Shown: positions 12,861-27,903 of the stretch, piece after piece
Layout: every line of letters starts with the position of its first letter
Position numbering within the stretch: position 1 is the stretch's first letter
From: Elsinoe ampelina
Lineage: Eukaryota
DNA: 64,000 bases
Direction: 5' to 3'
NCBI GenBank assembly: GCA_010093995.1
Contig: ML992501.1
Coordinates: 2,685,194 to 2,749,193 of the forward strand
The notes under the pieces: generated by a model
Databases searched by the model: none
Told to the model about the DNA's origin: nothing
Seen by the model: the letters and a program-made list of their open reading frames with translations, nothing else
Position numbers and translations under genes: made by a program

Positions 12861-15339
12861 ATGGGGCTTTCGATCATTGACGCCCAGCGGGATAGTGAGT
12901 GTAACTCGACAAGCATGGGAAATTGGCGCTGATACCAGCGCAGTAATAATACAGACGATCCGATCCACTACCCGCGGAGAAGTGTGTTACCTACACCAGA
13001 ACTGTCTTACTCAGGCGCTGACCCTCCCGCAGTGGAAGGTCCTCATAGTCGACGAGGATTCGAGGCGGATACTGGACAATGTCATCAAGCAAGATGACAT
13101 CCTCAATGAGAACATCACAAGTCAGCTCGCGAACACTCCCCATCCAGGGTTGGTCTGACTGGGAGCAGATATTGAGAACATTGAAGACCGGCGGCAGCGG
13201 AATCCAGAGCTCGATGCGGTCTATCTGCTCTCGGCGAAGCCGCACATCGTTGACTGTGTAATGGCCGACTTCGAGAAGAGAAGATACCGGAGAACGAACC
13301 TTATATGGACCTCAGTACCGCATCCGTCCCTGCGAGATCGAATAGATAAGTCACCAGTCGCAAGAGAGCAGATTTCCACATTCAAGGTCCTCAACGTCGA
13401 CTTCTATCCCCGAGAATCGCATCTCGTCACATTCAGGGACCCATGGGAATTCCCTGTCTTCTTCCACCCGGATTGCAATGGTCATGTCCGCAAGCAGATA
13501 GAGGACGTAGCACAAAAGGTGAGCAATGACAATCGGGCGATCGCAGGGGGCTGACGAAGGTCACATCAGATAGTGGGAGTATGCGTGGCGCTTGGCGAGT
13601 ACCCTACCATTCGCTACTACAAGCCCAACGCTGCACGCCACGAAGCAAGTGTGCTGGCTTTACACCTAGCGAGATTCATTCAGCAGGAACTGGACATGTA
13701 TGCTAAGTTTCACCAAGACTTCCCACCGCCATCGACGCGACCGCGAGGAGCGCTGTATATTGTGGATAGGTCGATAGACGTCATGGCGCCCTTTCTACAC
13801 GAGTTCACATACCAGGCTATGGTATTCGATCTATTGCCGATCCGAGATGGAGACAAGGTGACTTACAAGACGGTCGTCAATGAAGGTCGACGGGATCAAG
13901 AGTCGAAAGATGCAGAGATTTCTGAGAACGACAAGATCTGGGTGCAGAATCGGCATCAGCACATGAAGGACACAATCGAGAAGCTCATGGGCGACTTTCA
14001 GAAGTTTATTGACTCGAATCCACACTTCACGAAGCAGGACAGCGACAATGCGAACAGTCTGAATGCTATAAAGGACATGTTGGCTGGACTTCCAGAGTTT
14101 CAGGAAATGAAGGAAGCGTATTCATTGCATCTAAGCATGGCTCAAGACTGCATGAACATTTTCCAGAAGAACAAACTACCAGATCTGGCATCTGTTGAGC
14201 AGGTCCGCAATGCACTTGAATCCGTTGGCCCATACACTGACTCTCTATAGATCCTGGCCACCGGTTTAGACGAAGATTATCGCAAACCAAGGAATCTTGC
14301 AGACCAAATCGTCAGGACGCTAGACGATGATGCGGTAACACCACAAGATCGATTACGGCTACTCATATTGTATCTCATCTATCGAGACGGCCTTCTTCCT
14401 GCCGATCTTACCAAGCTCCTACTGCACGCACAGCTTCCTCCTTCCGAACAGCAGACCATGTCTCAACTTGTACATCTGGGTGTTTGCACTACCCGCGCCC
14501 TCAAAGAGGCGCGGCCACCACCAATACCCCCATTCCCGTTCCAACCGCCTCTCAACAATCTCGGGCAGGAGGAGTATGCCCTTTCTCGCTATATACCCGC
14601 TATAGCTTCTCTACTATCAGCACATGCTTCATCAACTCTCGATCCCGCCATCTTCCCATACACGAAGCCTCCTCTCGAGGACCCTAGCGATCCTACAACA
14701 CAGTCCGCAACATCTCTCCGAACAGCCAAGCCAACATGGGCGAAGAAGTCATCATCGTCCGAACCTCGACAACGAGTGATCGTGTATATCGCGGGCGGCG
14801 CAACCTATTCCGAAGCACGAAGCTGTTATGAGGCGTCCGCGAAGCACAATAAAGAAGTCATTCTCGTGACGAGTCACATGATAACCCCTTCCGGCTTCAT
14901 CCAGCAACTCGCCTCCTTGGGCTGGGATAAGCGCCGCCTCGGTCTACCCTCGGAGCGACCTCCGAAGCAGGCTCCGAAGCATCTCTTCGAAGACGAGCGC
15001 CGCCCAGCCGAGCCACAAGGGTCTGGTAACGGGCATTCTCAACCTCAAGCCGCACACTCGCACCACTCTACGACATCTGGACAGCGTAGAGGACAGGGCG
15101 GGTTCGGCGCCGCGCAACCGACATCGATAGCACCGAACGCAGACTTTGACTCCTCGGCTCGCATGAGACCACCCGAGCCTCCTGCAGCTGGGATCGCAAA
15201 TATGAGACTCAATGGTGGGGCGAGTCCGGCACTCAGCCAGGCGAGCAGTGCTGGTAGTCCCAAGCTAGGCTCAAATAAGCTCAGCAAAGATCCCGAGAAG
15301 AAGAAGAAACATCACTTCTTCGGGAAGTCGAAGTCATAG
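12861..15339 (+). CDS. SEC1: Sec1/Munc18 family exocytic SM protein (multi-exon)
   Basis: MGLSIIDAQRD start, WKVLIVD, LGEYPTIRY, PFLHEFTYQAM, RHQHMKDTI, IAGGATYSEARSCYE and a basic C-terminal tail KKKKHHFF. Introns join the ORF pieces. Confidence 0.93.
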
Positions 15340-15685
15340 CGGCACTCCAGCGATGTGTGAGACATGTAGATAGTGGCGAATGTGGTTGTTTCCACCTTAG
15401 CGGCTTGATTCAATGGATAGCGCGGGCGCCCCGATCCGGTTTGTCGGCCCTAATTTGCCTCTCAATGCAGGTAGCAAGTCGAAAGTGCTCGAGTCATTCA
15501 TGTTCCACGACCAAGTGAAAGCTGACTAAGCACGACTACCATCAAGCCAGCAATGCACCGAGCCAGGTGACGTAGGACATGTGACCGCTAGAGCGACAGA
15601 TGCTTCCACATGGTGGTCATAACGGTGTCGTCACATTGTCTGGTAATTAAGACAAGTTGACTCGAACAAGCGCTATCACTTGGAT

Positions 15686-18247
15686 TCACGGACCACCAGC
15701 AACGCAAACCCCATAACCCAACCACAACCCCTCACAATTCGTCCCGGCATTTGGATTCCACCTATAGAACGTATCCAGATCAATGCCGTACAGCTGTGTG
15801 ATACTCCAGCAGCCATCCCCCGACTGCACAGTGTAGTACGTCGAACACGTCGTAGGAGTGCCTGGTAGGATTGGAGCTGCCGGTGTCGTGGTCGCGGCTG
15901 CGCTCGTGGATGTAGAGGTCGGGCCTTCGACACAGTAAGCGTATCCTAGCCATAAACTCTCGCATCGTGCGTCGACTGGAAATGGTCAGTATGGGGTTCA
16001 GGATATTTATGTGGTTGCGGTCGGCACTTACCTGCGGGGTTCCATGCGTAGAATTGTTCGAAGGTGAGGCCGAAACGGCTGTATACGTTGGCGCAAGTAT
16101 CACCCTCGACGACGGTGTAGAAGCGGGTACAGTCTCTCACAATACCTGTTTGTGTTGGTCCCGTTGGCGCAGTGGCTGTCTTGGTGGGAGGTGTGGTTGA
16201 TGGCATGGATCCAGTTGGTGTGACGGTCGGTGCAGTATCGTTGGTCCGTATGCAGATAGACCGCTCTGCGTTTTCGGTCAGGTCCACGAAAAGATTTGTC
16301 TCGCAATCGGATGCTAGCCATGGGTTGTATTCGACCAGTTGTGCTTGAGTTATTCCGCCATCCTCGGCCACCTGTTCGCAATTGACGTCTACGGGCGGGT
16401 TAGCGTGCGGTGTGTCTGACGAGAATGAGACTTACATCCTTTGTCCCGTCCAGCAACGATCGTAAAGCATGAACAGCTAGCTACCGTGCCAGGGTAGATC
16501 TCTTCTACGACTAGACATTTGTTGTCGGTCGTGTTTTGCACTGCAGCTAATTAGCTAATTGCAAAGATACCCAACGGCTTCTACAAACCCGGAACCTCCG
16601 AGCCGTCCCATGCACAATAGCTGTATCCAGGCTGCAGGGCACATGGAGTGACAGATTGAAGACTGGGATTCCAGGATAGAAATGCTTCCATGTCCACATC
16701 GTAGCCAGAGGCGACGAAGTCACATGCATTGATCATATCAGTTGCAATGCTTGGGTCCAGACTCTGAGACTGATCCGTGATGCCGACTACTGGGAAATAA
16801 TCCACCAACGCCTTGCAATTCGCAACGGTGCCGGGAGCAGTAGGCAAGGGCGTATAGGGTGGCCGCGTGGGTAATGCTGGTGGATTGGGCCAGGTAGTTG
16901 TGTTAAATTGTCGCGGTGGAAGCGTATATGCTTGAGAAGTTGTTGGATATCCTGAATAGGTAGAGACAGATCCCACAGCCCGGACGCAATACGCCAGACC
17001 CAACAGCAAATTTGTGCAATTGGAATCGATCTGTGGGTTGAGAAAGAGAAAATCCTGCAGTAGAATCTCTTCTTTCAATGAGACGTCTGCGCAATTGTCT
17101 CCGCTCTGGATGGTGTACCATCGAGCACAGCGTGCGTTCGATTCCGGGGGCGCGTTCGTTGGCTTGGCCGCTGGAGTGGTTGGTACAGCGGTAGTCACGG
17201 TCATAGAGGCGCTGATACTGCTCTGTGGACCGCCTGGCGGGCTATATGGGCACTTCTGTCAGAATCCGCCGACAACTAAGCTACACGAAAGACGGCTCAC
17301 CTGATGCAAATATGGCTACCGAACAATTTCGGTAGATTACCGCACAATGGGTAGATGTTGGCGTTCCAGTCAACGATATTAGCACCTGTAAGTCCCGGTC
17401 TCGCGCTGGTGATGAGGTCGCACGAATCCAGATCCTGAACCTGGTAGATCTCACAAGGCTGCGGAAGACATAATGACACACCAGGTCGTAAATTGGAGCA
17501 GGTGCGATCTAGACCACCAGCTCTGATGATACTAAAAGTCGGTACACGTTGCGACATAGCTATGGATTCGCATGTGTCCCCTTCCTTGACCTGGTAGGGA
17601 CTGTCGCAGGTAGGTGCAGTGGTAGGTAGTCGGGGATCCACAGCTGTTGCGTTCAGGGCGTACGAGGTTGGAGATACGTATGAGTAGCCAGTCGCAGCAC
17701 AGCTAGATGTGGTAGATGCGAAGTCGCTGGCGAACATCGCATCGTACCCGAACGGCGAGGCGAGCTGCAATTGTGCGACTCCGAGCATACAGTCCGAGCA
17801 ATTTTGGGCTCCCGAGAGTACCGATTGATTGAGCCAGGACACGAATATCTCATCGCAAAAAACTCCAGAGGCCACATCCTTCCTGCACGACAAATCGTAT
17901 GTGTACAAAAACCGATTCGCAATCATTGTCGCAGGCCAAGTGATGCCTTCGTACTGTATTACGTCGCTGGGCCCCGAGCAACTTTTTGAAATGGTGTCTC
18001 GGACAGCGACAAGCGAGGACTGACATTGAGCTGTGCATAGTTCCGTCGATTGTTGTGGAGCGAGACGCATGTTGTCGATTGCAGCATCACTAAGAAAGAA
18101 CGGGCACCCTGCCACGGTAGTGTTGAGGGCAGTCATGCAATCAGCGGACATGCCGGGATAATCGACGGCATGCGTTACACCGTCTAGTTGCTGAGCCGTG
18201 GTAGGTCCTGGCGTGAGGAGTAATGCAAAGATCATGGCATCGAACAT
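15686..18247 (-). CDS. Secreted multi-LysM (CBM50) protein, about 7 LysM modules, multi-exon
   Basis: Signal peptide MFDAMIFALLLTPGPTTA and a Cys-rich N-domain. Fungal LysM repeats: YQVKEGDTC, YQVQDLDSC, YTIQSGDNC...LNPQI, WNPSL, YNPWL, YTVVEGDTC...WNPA. The last exon reads YTVQSGDGC...WNPNAGTNCEGLWLGYGVCVAGGP*. Confidence 0.88.
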
Positions 18248-19527
18248 CTTGGGCAGGTGTGATGCTTGACCCAGAATCGTGCAACGAGATGGTGTACTGG
18301 TAGTGCAAGGGGAGCTGTGAAGCAGAGAGAGCAGTGCCAAATTGACGAAGAGGAAGTAGTTGAGTCTTGCAATCTACCACGCCACCGAGTGGTGATCTGT
18401 CTTCATAGGCTGCGGGGCAAACAATATTACCGTACGAACAACAGATTGTGATGTTCGTTACCAGCACTTACAGAGCCTAGCATGCATTGTTCCACCCGGC
18501 GTGGCACGGTAGGTAGCATTCATCCCTCCGGCATTATTATTCGGAAATGCAATTGCAGGGGGGTGATTGACGCCTGGAGCAGCCGGCAATACTAGTAGGT
18601 AACCCAGCGGACTAGTCTCGGATTGTCCTGAGACCATTGCGGACCCTCTTGAAGTGCCGCACTAGGACTATCTCCTGCGACAACCTAGTACACGTCCGCG
18701 GCGCAGCTGATCCACGTTCCGTACAGCACGGCGAATGGCAGACTTTGACTGAGACCCATATCGACCGGTACCTGCGGCTATCGAAGGCTGCGAGGGAATT
18801 TGGCTGAAGCTGACCGGTGAAATAGATTGACAGATCCGTGGGACATCTGTGACCAAGCTCAATGAATCCCTGCCATATTCCTGCATATGCTGCCGATTCG
18901 GGCGTGACTTGAACCAGGTGAAGTGCAGATCTGTCACTGGCGGCACAGCAGGAAATCTGCCCTGAAATCACAAGCGGCAGGCAAACGCCAAGAGATTTCT
19001 CATGCAGGGACTGGAGGCCAAAGCTCTTCCGTTCCTGCATTCGTTCAGCTGAGCACTGACCTCTTCCGCTCTTTTCCTGGGGCAACTGTGCCTCATGGAC
19101 CACATCACACCACACCATGTGTGGATCCTATCCGTCAACGAACTTCCAGGAATTGATCTCATAAGGCACAGTTGCTAACCAGACAACCCTTGCAGATCGA
19201 AATGGCACTAGTCTCAAGGGCTGAGTGCAAGCGCTCAGCTAGTTGGAGGTCAATCATGGCGTAGACTGGGACTGTAACTGAACACCTCCCAGCGATGCCG
19301 GTCCGTCTCCGTGCCTCAATGAAGATAGCCAGGCTATGGCTGCTTCTGTCGTGTCTCCACTGGGATCTTCTCACATGGAAGGAGGGTCTGGCAATCTTGT
19401 TCCCGGCGGCGCAGTTCAACACTCCCTGCAGTATTAGCTTTAACAATTCATTTCATGTTGGCACTGCACTCTACAAGTCCTTTCCTCCCTGGCAATCCTG
19501 GGATACTTCTTCGCCCTGCACACGATC

Positions 19528-22500
19528 ATGGCTGGCGGTACAAGGTTGATTGAGGTCAGCGTGGCCCTCTTGACTGTGCTTCTAGTCGTTCTGTCGAAAT
19601 ACCATGGCGAATCTTTTGCCAATCAGAAAACGATCAAATTGCAAGCCAGAGGCTTTGAGCGTCTGTCCTATGAGTCCGGCTTGACGGACCATTCCAACCT
19701 CACACGCCGCCAAGACTATTCTTGTAGCGCCGACAGGCCTTGTAGCAACGGCGCCTGCTGTGGGAGCTCTGGGTTCTGCGGTTATGGCCAGACCTATTGT
19801 GGTGCGGGTTGTCAATCAAATTGCGATGCCTTCGCCGAGTGCGGCGTAGATTCACGCCCTTCTGGTAAAACTTGTCCACTCAACACTTGCTGTAGCGAGT
19901 TCGGCTTCTGCGGAACGACAGAGGTACGTCCTGATCAAAATTCAGTGGTGGATGATTGATACTGAGATGACAGGACTTCTGCACCGGCGGATGCCAGTCA
20001 AATTGTGACCTTCATCCTGCACCTCCGGGTGGTTCCCCAAAGGGACAGGCTTTGAGAAAAGGTGAGATCCCCCGGTAGAAAGCAGTCGTTGTTGACGATT
20101 GACGCCGTTCAGTCATTGGCTACTATGAATCTTGGAGCGATCGTCTTGCCTGTCACAAGATGTCACCGTCTGATCTGCCTTTGAACGAGCTCACACATAT
20201 CAATTTCGCTTTTGCGTTCATCTCGCCAGAAACGTTTGAGCTGGTGCCTATGGACTCGCAAACGCCCGAAAGCCTATTTCGCGCCACCGTGGAGACGAAG
20301 CAGATCAATCCGTACCTCTCGGTGTGGTTGAGTGTTGGTGGATGGACCTTCTCCGACAATGGCACTGTGACCCAACCACTCTTTGGTCAAATAGCCTCGA
20401 CTGAGGCGAATCGTCGTCGCTTCGCAGACAATGTGGTCACATTTTTGAACAAGTACGGGTTCGATGGGTCTGTAGCAACGGCAATCCTGGATCACGGGAC
20501 AATTTATTGACGATGTGCAGACTCGATGTCGACTGGGAGTACCCCGGCGCTCCGGATCGGGGCGGAAATCCAGAGGATGTGCCAAACTTTGTGCTAATGA
20601 TGGGAGCTCTACGGGCAGCTTTCAATGCATCACCGAGAGCACTTGGCCTCACCTTCACTGTGCCTGCGTCGTACTGGTATCTTCGCTGGTTCGATCTGCC
20701 CGGTCTTCTGAAACATTCGGACTGGCTCAACGTTATGAGTTATGATCTCCATGGGGTCTGGTAGGTGGAACGGGGAAGCCTGGCATGTCCTGAGCATTTG
20801 CTAATCTTGTTCCCCAGGGATCGTGACAACCCAATCGGCAACATTGTACAGGGTCACACGAATCTTACTGGCATCAAAAGCGCTGCTGAACTCCTGTGGC
20901 GAAATGGCGTACGACCGGAACAGGTCGTGCTAGGCTATGGTTTCTACGGCAGATCTTTTGAACTGTCCGATCCGGCCTGTTCTACACCTGGCTGCCGCTT
21001 TAGCGGTGGGGCCCGGCCAGGTCCCTGCTCTGCAACAAGTGGAATCCTGATGTACTACGAGATCAAAGCCATCCTCGAACAGGTCCCAAACCTGAAGCCT
21101 ATACACGACAAAGAGGCAGCTGTAAAGTACCTTGTATTTGACGAAAACCAATGGGTATCTTACGACGATGCCGAGACGTTCAAACAGAAAATGGATTGGG
21201 CAAATAATATAGGCATAGGTGGATCTATGATATGGGCGTCTGACACAGACGACGACGACTACACAGCCATGTCTGGGCTTATTGGCAAGCCGGTTGCTCA
21301 TCCAGATACATCGTTAGAAGCGATTGTCAAAAGCCCGGTCGCCAGTGCTCAGAATCTGGTAGGTATGACTGGACAGCAGTGCGAAATGACAACACAGTGC
21401 ATCTTCGATGATCGACCCGGATGTCAGTCCGGCTGGGTCGAGGTTGGTTGGGATCGAGCAGGCTGTGGTGTGAGTCTCGGATCGTGACTTTGAGCCACCA
21501 TCAACTGAATCTTTCAAGAACGGCCGCAAGCCCATTTGTTGCCCAGCGGATCGTGCACCAGGCTTCTGCACCTGTAAGTCACGATCCACTGATTGCAATG
21601 CTCGGACAACTGACAACACCATCAGGGCGAGGCTCCGGCGGCGACTGCAACGGGCAGTGTCACCCTGGAGAATCGACGCTCTTCAGATCGTCCTGGTAGG
21701 GGTCTTCGTTCCTATGGCATACTGCCCGCTGATGCTGACTCTCAAGGGGCGGAGGATTTGAGGCAGAAAGCAGTGCCGAGAAGAAATGCAGCCGAGGCAT
21801 CAAGGTCTTCTGCTGCGAAGCAAGCGCTTGGCGGGTAGTGACAGACGGCTGTTACATGTCAGACTGGTAGGCCCCAAGAATATCCCACACTGAAGAGCGC
21901 TAACAGTTCCCGAGTGGCGGCCAGTGTCGATCCGGCGATCGTGAATTGTATCAAACCCGAGGCCTTTGCAACTTCTACAAGTCTCGTATGGCAGTCATAA
22001 CGTATCACCAAGAAATACAAGCTCACGTATCTTTCCAGGAGCCAAATGTTGTCCTGCCGATACGCTGCTGTACGACTGCACTTGGAGAGGCACAGCACCT
22101 GACTGTGCAGACGCCAAATGCGAGAAGGATGAAGTGGCAGTGGATCTCGAGAGTCAAGGTGGTAGCGGACGCGGGTGTAGCTGTGAGTCTGATCTGCGTC
22201 GTGCGAAACGATACTAATCTTGATAAGGGGGTCGCAAGAAAACATCTTGCTGCAAAGTCAAATATCGGGGTGCACCTCCATTACAATGCCCGATCACTAC
22301 TTGTGACCTTGAGCCAGGCCTCTGCAACGATGACGCCAAGTTTCAGGATCTTCGTAAGAGGCAAGACAGCGAGAAGGTGGGACACCACGCTACAGGAGAA
22401 GGTCATCTGGTCGATGATGAAGAGAGCTATCTAGCAGATTACGAAGAGAACGACCCAACAGAGGACGGGCATCATCGTCTGGAGAAGCGCGGGTCTGGCC

Positions 22501-23636
22501 GCGACTTTTGGGTCACTTTGAAGAGTGGGAAACGGATTCTCATTCGATCTCTGGGGTATCCGGATCCCGAACAGTATTGGAATGCGGCTAGGAATGGTGC
22601 CGGAGCCCTTGCTGGCTGGTATGTGATGAACTCTCAGGCGTGTGGCGCTCCTCGAGTCACCTTTGTGCCGTTTCAAGGCATGAATGAACGTCCGCCAAAC
22701 GGTCAGGTCGAACACGTCGGTCCTGTAAGTCTCGCCCGTCCTTACAATTCGAAAGCGCTGACGCCGTCGACAGGTCAGTGGACTGTCCCGTTGGATGATG
22801 CAAGCAAGCCACGCGCTCTTCTGGCGACCCAGATCCCCACGGAATGCTATACCTATAGGACCTCCCACACCCCCTGGACCCATCCCGGACGAATTTTGGC
22901 AGAACATCTGGAACAACGCTAGAGCATTACCAAATGAAATCGGTGGTGGCAGAAGTCCAAACCAAATGGTATTCGGAGCCTTTGGTACTAGACAAGATTA
23001 TGAGCCATACGCGATGTTGCAGAACACTCTCAATCGGCTGAAAGGCCAGATCGAAGTGTTCCGCAGACCTATGGCTCCCGAAGTCCGCGATGGACACCTG
23101 GAGAATCTCCAACGAGGTGATATGGGAGCAAGGGAAGAGCTACTTAGACCACTTCGGGAGGTGAGATGCGCCAAACTGGTGCAGAAAAGACAGTTTTACT
23201 GACAGCGGACCTCCAGACAAGGGCTGTGTTCGAGTATCTGAACCAAGATGCTGTCATAACCAGACTGGATAATACCGCCACAAGGGTTTACCTCACCCTG
23301 CGGACCATTGAAGAGAACACGCGAGGTGGTGAAGGGTAAGCAATTGTGTATTGGTCGCAATTCGCCACTAACAAAACCTTAGCCTGGCCGCACATTGGAA
23401 CCTCTTCTGTGAGTATTCGATTCTTGCTGCCCTTCTTTCTTGCTTCTGATCTAATCTATCAAGATCCGCACTACTACGCCCAGGTTTCGGAATTCGTAAG
23501 AGATTGGGGCTTAGGCTTTGTTAGAGTTGTGCGGGAACGATATGGCAATCCCGGACCGTCGGACGACTCATTTCTCAAGGAATTGAAGGAATTGGAGGAC
23601 AGCATCAAAGATTGGAAGTATCCCTTCGAGAATTAA
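19528..23636 (+). CDS. GH18 subgroup-C (killer-toxin-like) chitinase with CBM18 domains, Cys-rich middle region and C-terminal domain of unknown function; many introns
   Basis: Hevein/CBM18 motifs CSNGACCGSSGFCG and CPLNTCCSEFGFCG. THINFAFA and SVGGW motifs, catalytic FDG-LDVDWEYPG across an intron, MSYDLHG, WVSYDD and IWASD. Confidence 0.92.
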
Positions 23637-23647
23637 GCAGTCCTCTA

Positions 23648-24424
23648 TCAATATCTAAAAACAGTCGGAGGGCGCTGATAGACGAAAGTCCAGATATCTG
23701 GCATACCCGACATATAAATGTAGAACGAATAGCTAATGCAGCCAATTGCGCTCTTCATCCAGCCCACATCGTGCTCACGTATTCCACCAATCTCATCGTA
23801 CATCCTCTCCTCAGGTTCCTCTTCGTCGCCCCGAGGCTGCCACGCAGCTTGGATGAGCTTCACATGGGCTTTCGTGTCCAATGGATTGATCGATGGGCCT
23901 TCACGCTTGAACTGCTCGAGTACTTCCCCGTCAACCTGGAAGAAGAATTCGTACCGAGGGGTCTCCACGATACCCTGGTAGAGCTCTGCGCGAGGTTGCT
24001 CTCGCAGGCATGCTGCTGACCTCCACTGTTTGAAATGCCGTCTCAGGTCCTCGCGGGATGCATTGTCGAATTTTGCTGCATCGTCGTCGAAGAAGGTCAG
24101 GTCCACGGTTTCCGATATGACAGGATCTCCGAGCTTCCCGACAGCCTGTTTCATACGTTCGAGGAGAAATGTGCGAAAGTCAGACCAGACCTGCTGGTCG
24201 CTGTATGAAGTGCGATAGATGACCCAGCCCCATTTATCAAGTTTCTGTTCTCGGAGAAGCTCGAGCAGTTCATGTGCTTCCGAGGTGACAGACATTTCGT
24301 TGAATCGGTTGATGCGACTGACCAAACTTGAAGGGTGCAAGCCCGCACGAGCAGGGCTTATGTTTCGGAGGCCTGAGAGCAGACACTGGGGACGCACTGC
24401 TCTAGTGACGAACGCAGTTAACAT
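23648..24424 (-). CDS. Hypothetical 'KWGWVIYRTSY' family protein, copy 1 (possible mitochondrial presequence; alternative ATG at 24295)
   Basis: Intronless ORF, strongly similar to 25085-25885 (LDKWGWVIYRTSYxDQ, NASRxxLRxHFKxWR, REQPR, RYExFFQVD). Confidence 0.8.
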   Translation of the reverse strand: MLTAFVTRAVRPQCLLSGLRNISPARAGLHPSSLVSRINRFNEMSVTSEAHELLELLREQKLDKWGWVIYRTSYSDQQVWSDFRTFLLERMKQAVGKLGDPVISETVDLTFFDDDAAKFDNASREDLRRHFKQWRSAACLREQPRAELYQGIVETPRYEFFFQVDGEVLEQFKREGPSINPLDTKAHVKLIQAAWQPRGDEEEPEERMYDEIGGIREHDVGWMKSAIGCISYSFYIYMSGMPDIWTFVYQRPPTVFRY

Positions 24425-25084
24425 TGATAGCAGAGGCGTTGAGATCTCAGCTCCAGTGCAAGGTTGGTGTACATGGATTGGTACCTTACTTTCTGAAGAC
24501 ACCGCTTGTAAATATACCAGACCCACTCTGCGGCTCAGCAGGGTCCGCAATTTACGCTCTTATTAACCACGAGCCGTTCACAATCAAGAGAATATGACCT
24601 CTTCGACATATCACAAGACAAAATCTCAAGTCTGGGACATCTGCTTCAGCACACTTGGTTGCGCAAAGTCGTCCGCGTCACGTGATGGACCCACTTCGTC
24701 GCCCGCCGCACCATTTGCATGAAGATTCGGCTTGAAAAAGCGCAAATCGCCCTCGATTTCGTGAGAAGCATATGCCACCACCATTGGCTGCTGGTACATC
24801 GGTAGTCCGGCAACGCAGTAGTCGGGCTTACCAATAGCGCAATCGTGGTGACTGCTCGTCCTGTTTGCAAGAGATAAAGTGCATATGGCGGAGTCTTCGA
24901 ATGGGTTGTCAATATGTTAGGGCGGTGAGTATGATGAGAAGAACCTTTTCCAAATCAGTCACGTGACTACATGGCCAATTCGACCCGCCACTCATCTTGC
25001 AACAAGCTTTCGTAATTCTACATATATATGGGTCTGATGGTATGCTCACAGTTTGTCTGAGACTCCATGTACACAATACTCCTA

Positions 25085-25885
25085 TCAATAGATACAAACA
25101 CCAGGCGGCCTGACATAAAACCGGTGCCAGCAATACTCCTCCCCCAGGTACTCGTAGAAGTTATGGCCCACACCTCCCGGCACGGTGTACATCCACCCAA
25201 CCTCTTCGCCTTTTGTCCCGTCAATCTCCTCCATGTCCTCTCCAAAGCCCTCCTCCCAGTAGTCCTCCATGTCTTCTTCGCGCTTGAAGTCCGCCTGGAT
25301 GACCTTCATCCGCACCCGTTCATCATATGGAGACAAGTGCTCCGATGCATGCTTCTTGAACGTTTCCATAGTCTCGTCGTCGACCTGGAAGAATAGCTCG
25401 TAGCGAGTCTCCCATACAGGCCAGGTGAAGTCCATGCGTGGTTGCTCCCGTGGTAGGGCTTCCTGCCTCCATTTTTTGAAGTGCTCTCGGAGGGCAGGGC
25501 GAGAGGCGTTGTTGAAGAGAGACTCGTCGTCGAAGTAGGTGAGTTCTCGGAAGTCCAGTAATTGTGGCGCTTTTGATGTCGAGAGATACTCACGATCTGC
25601 TTGATCGAGATATTCCTTGAAGCGCTCCCATGTAGCTTGATCCTGGTAGGAGGTTCGGTATATCACCCAACCCCATTTGTCTAATTTGCGGGCCCTCATA
25701 TTCTCGTAGACCTCGACGTCTGCATCGGGAAGTTCACGAGTGGGTTTATAGGTGCTATAGGAGCGACTAGCATAGTGATTGAGAGGGGTCGAGGTAGTAG
25801 ACCGTCGGCAGGACGAAAGAGCAAAACGCCATGCGGGCGGCGTGCGTAGTGGCTGCTGCCACAGTCTTCTCACGATACCCGCCAT
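25085..25885 (-). CDS. Hypothetical 'KWGWVIYRTSY' family protein, copy 2 (mitochondrial-type presequence)
   Basis: 266-aa intronless ORF and tandem paralog of 23648-24424. The N-terminus is Arg/Ser/Thr-rich with no acidic residues and ends RSYST. Confidence 0.82.
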   Translation of the reverse strand: MAGIVRRLWQQPLRTPPAWRFALSSCRRSTTSTPLNHYASRSYSTYKPTRELPDADVEVYENMRARKLDKWGWVIYRTSYQDQATWERFKEYLDQADREYLSTSKAPQLLDFRELTYFDDESLFNNASRPALREHFKKWRQEALPREQPRMDFTWPVWETRYELFFQVDDETMETFKKHASEHLSPYDERVRMKVIQADFKREEDMEDYWEEGFGEDMEEIDGTKGEEVGWMYTVPGGVGHNFYEYLGEEYCWHRFYVRPPGVCIY

Positions 25886-26104: not shown

Positions 26105-27903
26105 TCACAACTTCGCCCCCCGTTCCCTCTTCACCAACTCCCTCAAATCCTTCCTCAGTATCTTGCCCGACGGACTCTTCGGAATCGCATCCAAGAACAC
26201 CACCCCACCTCTCAACTGCTTATGCCCAGCCACATTCTCCTTCACATACCTCACAATATCATCTGCCGAAATCCTCTTCCGATCAGCAACCACATACGCT
26301 CTCGGCGCCTCATCATACCCATCCTCAATCGGCACGCCAATCACCGCAGCATCCAGTATCAACTCATGACTGAGCAACAACGCCTCCAGCTCGGCCGGCG
26401 CCACCTGCAGACCTTTATACTTGATCAGCTCCTTTTTGCGATCGACGATGTAGAAGAGGCCGTTGGTGGGGTTGAAGTGGCCGATATCGCCCGTGCAGTA
26501 CCATCCGTCTTTGTAGGCTTCGGCGTTGGCGGTGGGGTTGTTGAAGTAGCCTCTGCTGATCACCGGGCCACGGAGGAGGATCTCGCCTGGTGAACCGACG
26601 GGGACGTCGTGGCCTTCTTCGTCGACGATACTGGTTGGGTTAGTAGGGTGGGGGATGGGAGAGGGGTTGCTTACCGAGCTGTCATGTTGGCTACGAGGGC
26701 GCTGACGCTGCCTGTGTCGTCCCGCATGCCTTCGGGCATGACGGTGGCGCTACCGGTGCTCTCGCTCAGGCCCCAGGTTTGTGAGATGAAGATCTTGCCT
26801 TTTCCTAGCTTTGCACTCGCAGCGTACTGCAGCTCCTTGCCTAGGGGTGCGGCCCCGGAGACGGCTGATTCCAGGGTGTCGAACTGATCTGTGACATCCG
26901 GACTCTTCGCAATGAGGAGATATATTGGTGGGACAGTGAAGAAGAATGTGATCCTGTACTTCTTGTTGTACTCCAGAAATCTTGGCCAGTCGAAGCGAGG
27001 CATCCAATACGTCGTCCCGCCGAGGTAGAAAGGGTTCACAAAGTATCCTTGGATACCCGCAATGTGTGCAATAGGTAAGTGCGCCAGCGTTCTGTATTCG
27101 AAGTTTGGGTTCTGAATTGCTCTTCTCTCCTTCATCGGATCTGCTGGTAAGCAGCATTCTGCCACAAAGTTCTCATGCGAGATGCAGACCGACTTGGGTA
27201 GTCCGGTTGTGCCAGAAGAGTAGATCAGAACTACCAGGCTCTCGGCGAGCTCTTTCTGATCGGTTATTTTTCTCCATTGTAACTCGCCGTCACTGAGAAG
27301 TTCCTTCTTTGGCTCGCTCACTCGCTTCAGACTCCATTCCCCACTGTCACTGGTGACCACGACTTTGGTCACTCCGTAGCCCAGCAGCGGCGGCAGCCTT
27401 GACAGCAACGTCCTTCGTGGCTTCATTGCAGATCAAAAGACTGCAGCCAGCTCCATTCAAGAGGCCAGCGAGCTCTTTGTCCGTGCTTGCTGCTGAGACA
27501 GCTGAGAAGATACCCTCTGCAGCTATCACGCCGTAGAATAGCAGAGGTACCATGTAATGACCAGTGGATATGACTGTGACTACATCCTTTCCGGGTCCGT
27601 TGGCACCTATGTCAAAGTGGTTCCGAAGAGCATGTGCTGTCCGCTTGGTGTGCTTCCTGACATCTGCTTTGGTCAGGTACTGTGATGGGTCCTCCGCTGA
27701 GGCATGTAGGATGGTGTCCTCATGCGATGTCCACTTTGTGTTGGTGACTTTGTGGTCTGTGGCATGTCAATGTAAGATTCGATGCTGTGTATTGCTCCAT
27801 CGTTACCAAAGAGCAGTGTCAACAGATCCACGTGCGGATAGTCCCGGATCTGCTCGGGGTGATATATCGTGCCAGATGATGTTGTAACAGCTCTCGATGT
27901 CAT
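26105..27903 (-). CDS. 4-coumarate/phenylacetate-CoA-ligase-like AMP-binding enzyme, peroxisomal; apparent +1 frameshift at ~27364-27366
   Basis: YSSGTTGLPK AMP-binding motif, QTWGLSE, TGD, IVDRKKELIKYKGLQVAPAELE, PKSPSGKILRK and C-terminal PTS1 AKL*. Confidence 0.88.

Follow-up and report, generated by a model that had tools for sequence, protein, structure and literature searches.

A subgroup-C chitinase with a conserved tail and a linked DUF6924-like gene family suggest an undescribed antifungal toxin/antidote pair in Elsinoe ampelina

Results

A four-gene chitinase block

We analyzed a 64,000-nucleotide (nt) stretch of the fungus Elsinoe ampelina (GenBank assembly GCA_010093995.1, contig ML992501.1, positions 2,685,194 to 2,749,193; hereafter the window, numbered from its first letter), which is nuclear DNA with short introns. 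The element in question is a ∼10-kb block (15686-25885) of four genes in total: a multi-LysM gene, a large CBM18-GH18 chitinase, and two paralogs, A and B, of a family that we call WGWVIYR. The original prediction, made from the sequence alone, had read this block as a candidate toxin-delivery and immunity module lying between SEC1 and a CoA ligase. All genes were found where it had put them, and RNA contigs reach all four. The block and its parts are as follows.

15686-18247, minus strand: multi-LysM protein gene (LysM-only partner), with Pfam LysM matches in four of four large open reading frame (ORF) pieces
18248-19527, no strand: divergent LysM-chitinase intergenic region, 1280 nt separating the two ATGs
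19528 (ATG)-23636 (stop), plus strand: chitinase coding sequence, 15 exons, 1130 amino acids (aa), supported by splice signals, homologs, and RNA
19528-19923, 19974-20061, 20113-20467, 20521-20760, 20818-21469, plus strand: chitinase exons 1-5
21519-21573, 21626-21695, 21747-21866, 21915-21985, 22039-22182, plus strand: chitinase exons 6-10
22228-22724, 22774-23160, 23217-23335, 23383-23408, 23464-23636, plus strand: chitinase exons 11-15
22350-22490, plus strand: putative processing region, with LRKR at 22350-22361, the linker at 22362-22490, and LEKR at 22479-22490
22491-23633, plus strand: chitinase C-terminal domain, residues 819-1130 (312 residues), with three introns within the span
22641-22643, 22710-22715, 23032-23034, 23041-23043, plus strand: tail residues C869, E892-H893, N983, and K986, respectively
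23648-24424, minus strand: paralog A, 258 aa, its ORF covered by an RNA contig that reaches 24467
25085-25885, minus strand: paralog B (P0001), 266 aa, covered by an unspliced RNA contig

The LysM gene and the chitinase gene lie head to head, as had been proposed, in an arrangement already known for subgroup-C-type chitinases and divergent LysM genes (tac6/tal6), as a 2015 review describes (PMC4392113). At its other end, the chitinase stop codon is separated by only 11 nt (23637-23647) from the stop codon of paralog A. The original prediction had this gap right and compared the layout to bacterial loci with downstream immunity genes. Both paralogs lie on the minus strand and converge on the chitinase, stop to stop, and do not follow it on its own strand in the manner of a bacterial toxin-immunity operon. 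That they are two tandem paralogs was borne out: A and B align over 212 aa at 42% identity (E = 8e-50), and the motif KLDKWGWVIYRTSY occurs in both.

We derived the chitinase model from splice signals and from tblastn of 120 homologs and compared it with contigs from a public run, X1, that is listed only as "RNA?". A 4655-nt contig (19120-24467) lacks exactly the model's 14 introns, and run X1 is therefore RNA and the model is confirmed. A minimal-intron automatic model was dropped, as both homology and RNA back the 14-intron model. The contig continues past the chitinase stop, spans the whole antisense ORF of paralog A, and ends at 24467; it fits overlapping convergent transcripts joined by unstranded assembly and is not proof of a single transcript. 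Between 23464 and 24467, the chitinase and paralog A transcripts overlap or read through, and natural antisense pairing is possible there. Paralog B is covered by an unspliced 882-nt contig (25051-25907), and the first ATG of both paralogs lies within RNA contigs, so that the chitinase and both paralogs are represented in the same run, the contig depths of which are unsuitable for ranking expression.

The LysM gene has an intron (17242-17300) that is spliced out in an RNA contig. Its product matches no Pfam family besides the four LysM matches and starts with a hydrophobic, signal-like N terminus (MFDAMIFALLL...; judged by eye), thus combining several LysM motifs, no catalytic domain, and a secretion-like start in the manner of LysM effector-type proteins. 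On the far side of this gene, around 15500-16595, a 3675-nt RNA contig comes in from upstream of 15500 on the Sec1 side and enters the LysM gene's 3′ part, and the transcripts of Sec1 and the minus-strand LysM gene, which converge, apparently overlap.

The chitinase reads, in order, a hydrophobic signal or anchor, two CBM18 modules, GH18, Cys-rich CC-repeats, LRKR, a linker closing with LEKR, and the 312-residue tail. Pfam recovers the two CBM18 stretches and GH18 in three exon pieces, and in the spliced protein the GH18 catalytic motif DxxDxDxE is intact as DGLDVDWE. LysM was matched by Pfam in none of the chitinase pieces, and in a precomputed Pfam column LysM (PF01476) occurs in 0 of the 120 closest GH18 homologs. 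According to a 2024 preprint by Heneghan, Salzberg, and Wolfe (10.1101/2024.10.25.620242), C-II and virus-like element (VLE) chitinases carry LysM and C-I chitinases do not. With CBM18 modules, a length above 1000 aa (1130), and no LysM (CBM50) in the enzyme, the E. ampelina chitinase is, by its architecture and their criterion, of the C-I type.

A conserved, enzyme-like tail behind predicted cleavage sites

The long C-terminal extension that had been predicted is real and comprises ∼560 residues after GH18 that match no Pfam family. Two dibasic sites divide it. The linker that follows the first of them has 43 residues, contains no Cys, and is acidic up to the closing LEKR (14 D/E overall). 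A [KR]R dibasic, Kex2-like site stands right before the tail domain in 14 of the 16 aligned homologs listed, and the upstream site recurs in 12 of these 16. In the chitinase, 47 Cys precede LRKR and a single one follows LEKR. Of 10 homologs checked, 9 likewise have exactly one Cys in the tail, and 6 have an odd number in the N-terminal part. This distribution fits an inter-chain disulfide that would persist after cleavage, with gene-model errors blurring the count. C869, the last Cys of the protein, lies 261 residues before the C terminus of the 1130 and is one of six residues invariant in 26 of 26 aligned tail sequences (C869, E892, H893, G967, N983, and K986).

When residues 701-1130 were compared with the 120 homologs by BLASTP, 76 matches were obtained, 6 of them over the Cys-rich part only. 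The tail is common to about 70 of the 120 GH18 homologs, including proteins of Podospora, Daldinia, Colletotrichum, Trichoderma, Claviceps, Aspergillus, and Penicillium, and is therefore one conserved domain rather than a swappable polymorphic cassette. The analogy with bacterial polymorphic toxins, on which the original prediction leaned, is not supported by this result. Conservation is nonetheless uneven, as identity to homologs is 20-39% in the tail vs. 54-77% in GH18. Between the window and Aspergillus chevalieri, identity is 63% for GH18, 32% for the tail, and ∼30% for the WGWVIYR family; divergence is much faster in the tail and in the family than in GH18.

To place the invariant residues, we used an AlphaFold2 (AF2) model of the homologous tail part of protein P0245 (pLDDT 94.7, pTM 0.92). 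In this model, His H76 directly follows strand 72-75, N176 and K179 lie inside helix 173-182 after strand 169-172, and the second half forms a long helical bundle. The pattern [DE]H..P ... N ... N..KG is that of HNH-type His-Me-finger nucleases such as GmrSD_C. The tail has [DE]H at a strand end and Asn in the following strand-helix unit, and its residues, in sequence and in the model, look like an HNH/His-Me-finger pattern. A toxin domain of this fold, Tox-DHNNK (DH, N, N, N, K), has been listed in ascomycetes by Zhang et al. 2012 (PMC3482391). Of the clusters among the Atlas feature matches listed for the tail, the only ones with a Pfam family have GmrSD_C in 16% of their members or AHH in 69%. 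At a score of 0.79 each, they are no more than leads by the tool's own rating, and we take them as weak independent support for a nuclease. A word-based protein search with the tail exon gave no match, a prokaryote genome scan with the chitinase alignment gave no confirmed relative, and our literature search found no description of the tail as a nuclease. Atlas also matched residues 671-1004 of P0245 to a Pseudomonadota cluster of 226-residue proteins (score 0.91, 175 shared features), auto-named "chitin-binding protein"; these bacterial proteins are possibly related to the tail.

The tail might alternatively be not a toxin but a β-subunit-like delivery, adhesion, or regulatory part, with the toxic subunit elsewhere or absent. 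Its conservation in ∼70 relatives would agree with such a role, as would a second half that is a helical bundle with generic helical matches only. In zymocin, moreover, the chitinase precursor is cut into α and β, and β is disulfide-linked to a separate γ toxin (10.1101/2024.10.25.620242); a single conserved Cys would suit a tether of this kind. The invariant E-H and N..K look catalytic, however, and 261 residues follow the conserved Cys, whereas in zymocin-like chitinases it is described as near the C terminus. A candidate partner is also missing: no small secreted protein gene was found among ORFs of at least 80 aa within 15686-25885, and by eye a signal peptide is evident on neither of the two small genes of the block. 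We consider such a non-toxic role of the tail unlikely.

Recurrent linkage of the WGWVIYR family to chitinases

A two-sequence profile retrieved 812 representative clusters at E ≤ 0.001 (351 at E ≤ 1e-10), a large Pezizomycotina family with named members from Dothideomycetes, Sordariomycetes, and Eurotiomycetes. A word-based protein search with paralog B returned only the protein itself. In the family tree, A and B are sisters (SH-aLRT 99); that one is a spare copy of the other, as had been proposed, is only one possible reading of this relationship.

The original prediction had tied its case to a linkage of the two families in other genomes, and this linkage was clearly found. In A. chevalieri, ACHE_11738A (P0003, the third-best family match) adjoins, by locus tags, ACHE_11737S, a chitinase with the same tail. 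The chitinase models of Aspergillus felis (P0234) and Myotisia sp. (P0210) run into a family domain, and an Aspergillus flavus gene model joins LysM to one; all three look like merged neighboring genes. A scan of metagenome contigs yielded 37 loci with a family gene, and in 8 of these the gene lies near a subgroup-C-like chitinase or its LysM partner, 7 of the 37 holding the chitinase itself. Three arrangements occur. In L001, L007, and L010, as in the window, family gene and chitinase are convergent, tail to tail; in L027, L035, and L036, the family gene lies downstream of the chitinase on the same strand; and in L006 the order is family gene, LysM gene, chitinase, with L008 of the same type as far as the LysM gene (L006/L008 and L034-L036 are near-copies). 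A family gene downstream on the same strand, as with bacterial immunity genes, is seen only in the second arrangement. Orientation varies among the linked loci, and adjacency stays.

The remaining 29 metagenome loci mostly have short flanks, and in ten loci with at least 2.5 kb on one side no chitinase was seen. In the family tree, the 14 linked rows all belong to a single clade of 26 rows. In a subclade of 16 rows, 11 are linked, 2 are unlinked, and 3 were assigned to neither class; a separate 9-row clade has no linked row. A weaker hint comes from two family/chitinase pairs (P0017/P0171 and P0286/P0173) that lie on contigs equal in size. The association of this family with chitinases was not described anywhere in the literature that our search found.

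Chance, or a purely ancestral synteny without a functional tie, would be helped by the large size of both families in Pezizomycotina. Adjacency recurs, however, in about 11 lineages and in three arrangements, and the window block sits among housekeeping-type genes (Nipped-B, SUV3 helicase, Sec1, and CLC channel). Subgroup-C chitinases number an estimated handful of genes per genome; on this estimate of ours, far fewer than 1 in 37 random loci would be expected to have one within 5 kb. We therefore regard coincidence as very improbable. The immediate flanks of the block are as follows.

13555-15336, plus strand: Sec1 gene, left flank
26108-27432, minus strand: AMP-binding CoA ligase, right flank

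Individual loci showed further features. In the near-identical L035 (2286-2516) and L036 (3137-3523), the chitinase tail contains in-frame stops or an ambiguous base, one defect lying inside the conserved LL.D..N..KG unit, and the family gene is intact; the chitinase may be decaying while its partner gene survives, or the sequence may be in error. Two family genes without a chitinase link lie a few kilobases from genes of classes tied to fungal non-self recognition: a HET-domain gene (L025, 1025-3526) and an NPHP3_N/NACHT-type gene (L017, 13657-14253).

A DUF6924-like intracellular family

Neither paralog matches a Pfam family at threshold or anything in PADLOC or NCBIfam at E ≤ 10, the family profile reaches a best E of 0.18 against PDB sequences, and a prokaryote genome scan with the family alignment gave no confirmed relative. 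DUF6924 (PF21962) weakly matches the N-terminal half of the family: at E ≤ 1 it is recognized in 25 of 87 members, with 7.4e-5 as the lowest E; no fungal member reaches its gathering cut-off of 24.4 bits, and P0001 has no match. The Atlas model of P0001 aligns with an actinobacterial DUF6924 cluster over 147 residues (TM 0.55 for the query, 0.64 for the target), and the fungal VIYRTSY.D..W resembles the bacterial motif VIRTDFSDEDAW. The WGWVIYR family appears distantly like DUF6924, from which the fungal proteins differ by an extra C-terminal half ending in RPP.

Our literature search found no paper on DUF6924. The domain is absent from E. coli K-12 and 14 control genomes, and tblastn of P0039 against plasmids gave a single chance-level match. 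We found bacterial DUF6924 on one actinobacterial megaplasmid, pSCAT of Streptantibioticus cattleyicolor. There, a 923-residue protein that has OAA-lectin and F5/8-type-C domains but no signal peptide carries it at the C-terminal end (L046, 6443-9214). A second protein, of 330 residues, is made up of two DUF6924 domains in tandem, and its neighbors are MgtC and an ABC-2 transporter (L047, 8413-9405). This context is ambiguous and speaks neither for nor against an immunity role.

The AF2 model of paralog B (pLDDT 85.3) had no PDB match by Foldseek at E ≤ 0.001. In a VIA search, 13 of the 14 top rows were anticodon-binding domains of class IIa aminoacyl-tRNA synthetases (aaRS) or their paralogs POLG2 and GCN2; the best, GlyRS, had a Z of 7.4 and a root-mean-square deviation of 3.2 over 111 residues, a level that may reflect only a common α/β arrangement.

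Family proteins lack a signal peptide, and on this ground we rejected the option that the paralogs are secreted γ-like toxins. By a crude count that scored basic and nearly acid-free first 40 residues among 111 motif-bearing representatives, 50 have an N-terminal extension of at least 55 residues, and 34 of these 50 look like mitochondrial presequences. The 34 include paralog B and A. chevalieri P0003, and the N terminus of paralog A, checked separately, is presequence-like too. In the paralogs and many relatives (among them P0002, P0003, P0005, P0009, P0012, P0013, and P0016), the extension is 55-110 residues long, basic, acid-free, and Ser/Thr/Pro-rich; about 43 of the 111 representatives have no extension at all. 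In a 563-aa metagenome protein, P0058, profile positions 64-183 of the family domain, its N-terminal half, are joined to a WD40 β-propeller. This architecture is reminiscent of fungal NLR (nucleotide-binding leucine-rich repeat)-like sensors, the family domain standing where the effector or sensor would be.

These properties leave room for a module that is functional but in which the WGWVIYR proteins are no antidotes. They would then be intracellular, often mitochondrial accessories that bind a ligand or nucleic acid and are co-regulated with the chitinase and LysM genes, for example in a stress or wall-damage response during confrontation. Charged and aromatic residues are strongly conserved, with R133 invariant in 87 members; the N termini resemble presequences; the nearest folds are the aaRS anticodon-binding domains, POLG2, and GCN2; many members lie away from chitinases; and bacterial DUF6924, on the one replicon examined, is fused to lectin domains and does not stand beside toxins. 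On the other side, the family gene recurs, in various orientations, directly next to that end of the chitinase gene, the 3′ one, which encodes the enzyme-like tail; such a pattern is typical of pairwise dependency. The family also matches no enzyme or transporter family. We judge such an accessory role doubtful, if the most serious of the alternatives.

The paralogs could also be Imm proteins, or Imm-like stand-alone defenses against foreign anticodon-nuclease toxins, with the C-I neighborhood a relic. Imm genes are numerous, often multicopy per locus, and present in genomes without toxin genes (PMC11848437; 10.1101/2024.10.25.620242), and among solved structures the family's fold comes closest to tRNA anticodon-binding domains. 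In the preprint's account, however, Imm genes stand only beside LysM-bearing C-II chitinases (10.1101/2024.10.25.620242), and the linked chitinases examined here lack LysM. This association argues against WGWVIYR being Imm, and we hold the identity to be quite unlikely.

Discussion

The block is very probably a functionally tied module. We favor, tentatively and with a probability of roughly 40%, a toxin/antidote mechanism in which the C-I chitinase is a single-chain pro-toxin and the WGWVIYR proteins are its antidotes, together a conserved fungal conflict module; the tail and the linked family suggest an antifungal toxin/antidote pair that has not been described. The protein would enter the secretory pathway, and a Kex2-type protease would cut at LRKR and LEKR and remove the acidic spacer. 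The 312-residue tail would stay tethered to the CBM18/GH18 part through its single Cys, and that part would dock on the chitin wall of another fungus and open it. The tail would be the effector, most likely a His-Me-finger (HNH-like) nuclease acting through E892/H893 and N983/K986. The divergent LysM protein would work on chitin alongside the chitinase, and the two intracellular paralogs would be the producer's antidotes, possibly partly mitochondrial. The original prediction is supported in part: linkage, the dibasic site, and enzyme-like residues speak for it, and its polymorphic-toxin analogy is not supported, the tail being conserved and the paralogs convergent.

Several observations weigh against a toxin/antidote pair. 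The tail matches nothing in Pfam, nor in PADLOC and NCBIfam at E ≤ 10; a tail fragment had 0 matches among PDB sequences at E ≤ 10; and the tail model found nothing in the PDB by Foldseek at E ≤ 0.001 and, in a wide VIA search, generic helical matches only (Z ≤ 6.0), both lists being dominated by the helical half. The spacing from H to N..N..K, ∼87 residues, is far above that of classical HNH. On the side of the candidate antidotes, the family is very large (812 clusters) and, in 87 members compared, nearly invariant at 19 positions; of the members with long flanks, most have no chitinase beside them; and the paralogs, being convergent, are not co-transcribed with it. Presequence-like N termini (34 of 50) are needless for a cytosolic or nuclear antidote, and the DUF6924 genes of pSCAT, a single replicon, have no evident toxin neighbor.

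The published systems closest to such a pair are the nuclear zymocin-like clusters described in the 2024 preprint. In these, a LysM-bearing C-II chitinase is accompanied by a small secreted γ toxin with a gene of its own and, in some clusters, by Imm genes akin to the ones on yeast killer plasmids; every chitinase of such a cluster is C-II, and no clusters are reported there beside C-I (10.1101/2024.10.25.620242). Several paralogous immunity genes per locus are usual in zymocin systems (PMC11848437). Like these clusters, the window has a nuclear cluster in which an intron-containing gene for a large secreted subgroup-C GH18 chitinase stands with a LysM-only gene and with candidate immunity genes for intracellular proteins. 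The precursor is processed (by prediction, in our case), and a role in antagonism between fungi is proposed. Unlike the C-II enzymes with LysM, the window chitinase lacks LysM and has C-I architecture. Its candidate effector is fused to the chitinase, with no small secreted gene found, among ORFs of at least 80 aa, in the place of the γ-toxin genes (Tox-P1 to P9), and its last Cys, C869, is 261 residues from the end rather than near the chitinase C terminus. The candidate antidote is of a DUF6924-like family, which is not named in the preprint's abstract, Results, or Discussion (10.1101/2024.10.25.620242).

There are parallels with killer toxins as well. As in Kluyveromyces lactis zymocin and in K1/K28, a secreted precursor has dibasic sites around a spacer that would be excised and a lone Cys that could form an inter-chain disulfide. 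K1 and K28 are Kex2-processed, disulfide-linked A/B killer toxins. The chitin-binding and chitinase part would be the wall-docking subunit, as in zymocin. Unlike in known killer toxins, to none of which the tail is related in sequence, the proposed nuclease-like effector sits on the same polypeptide; and the candidate immunity here comes from a separate family, whereas that of K28 comes from the precursor and that of zymocin from pGKL1 ORF3. With bacterial polymorphic toxins (Tox-DHNNK, AHH), as described in PMC3482391, the locus shares a carbohydrate-binding N-terminal part, the predicted proteolytic release of a C-terminal enzyme-like domain, the [DE]H...N...N..K pattern, and a small intracellular neighbor gene that is sometimes multicopy. 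Unlike theirs, the tail is conserved and not swapped, the neighbor gene in the window is convergent, and the genes are those of a eukaryote and have introns. In hidden Markov model (HMM) searches, the proteins of the block matched neither a Tox nor an Imm family.

The chitinases of subgroup C have been suspected of killer-toxin-like action for about twenty years. As of a 2015 review, they are reported there as without biochemical characterization (PMC4392113), and in the 2024 preprint toxin and immunity genes are known only beside the C-II branch (10.1101/2024.10.25.620242). The present locus offers the C-I branch a concrete mechanism: an enzyme-like tail, predicted to be cleavable, with six invariant residues, and a linked candidate antidote family. 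Taken to its full extent, which we think rather unlikely as a whole, this would mean that the C-I chitinases of filamentous ascomycetes are single-chain, Kex2-processed A/B killer toxins that bring a divergent His-Me-finger nuclease, their conserved tail, through the chitin wall of rival fungi, and that the DUF6924-fold WGWVIYR proteins are the matching immunity, including orphan copies against foreign toxins. The presequence-like N termini of many members would then hint at mitochondrial nucleic acids as a target. Should the toxin reading be wrong, the conserved linkage would still want explanation. If it is true, it would bring a new type of antifungal toxin, a role for DUF6924-like proteins, and leads for biocontrol.

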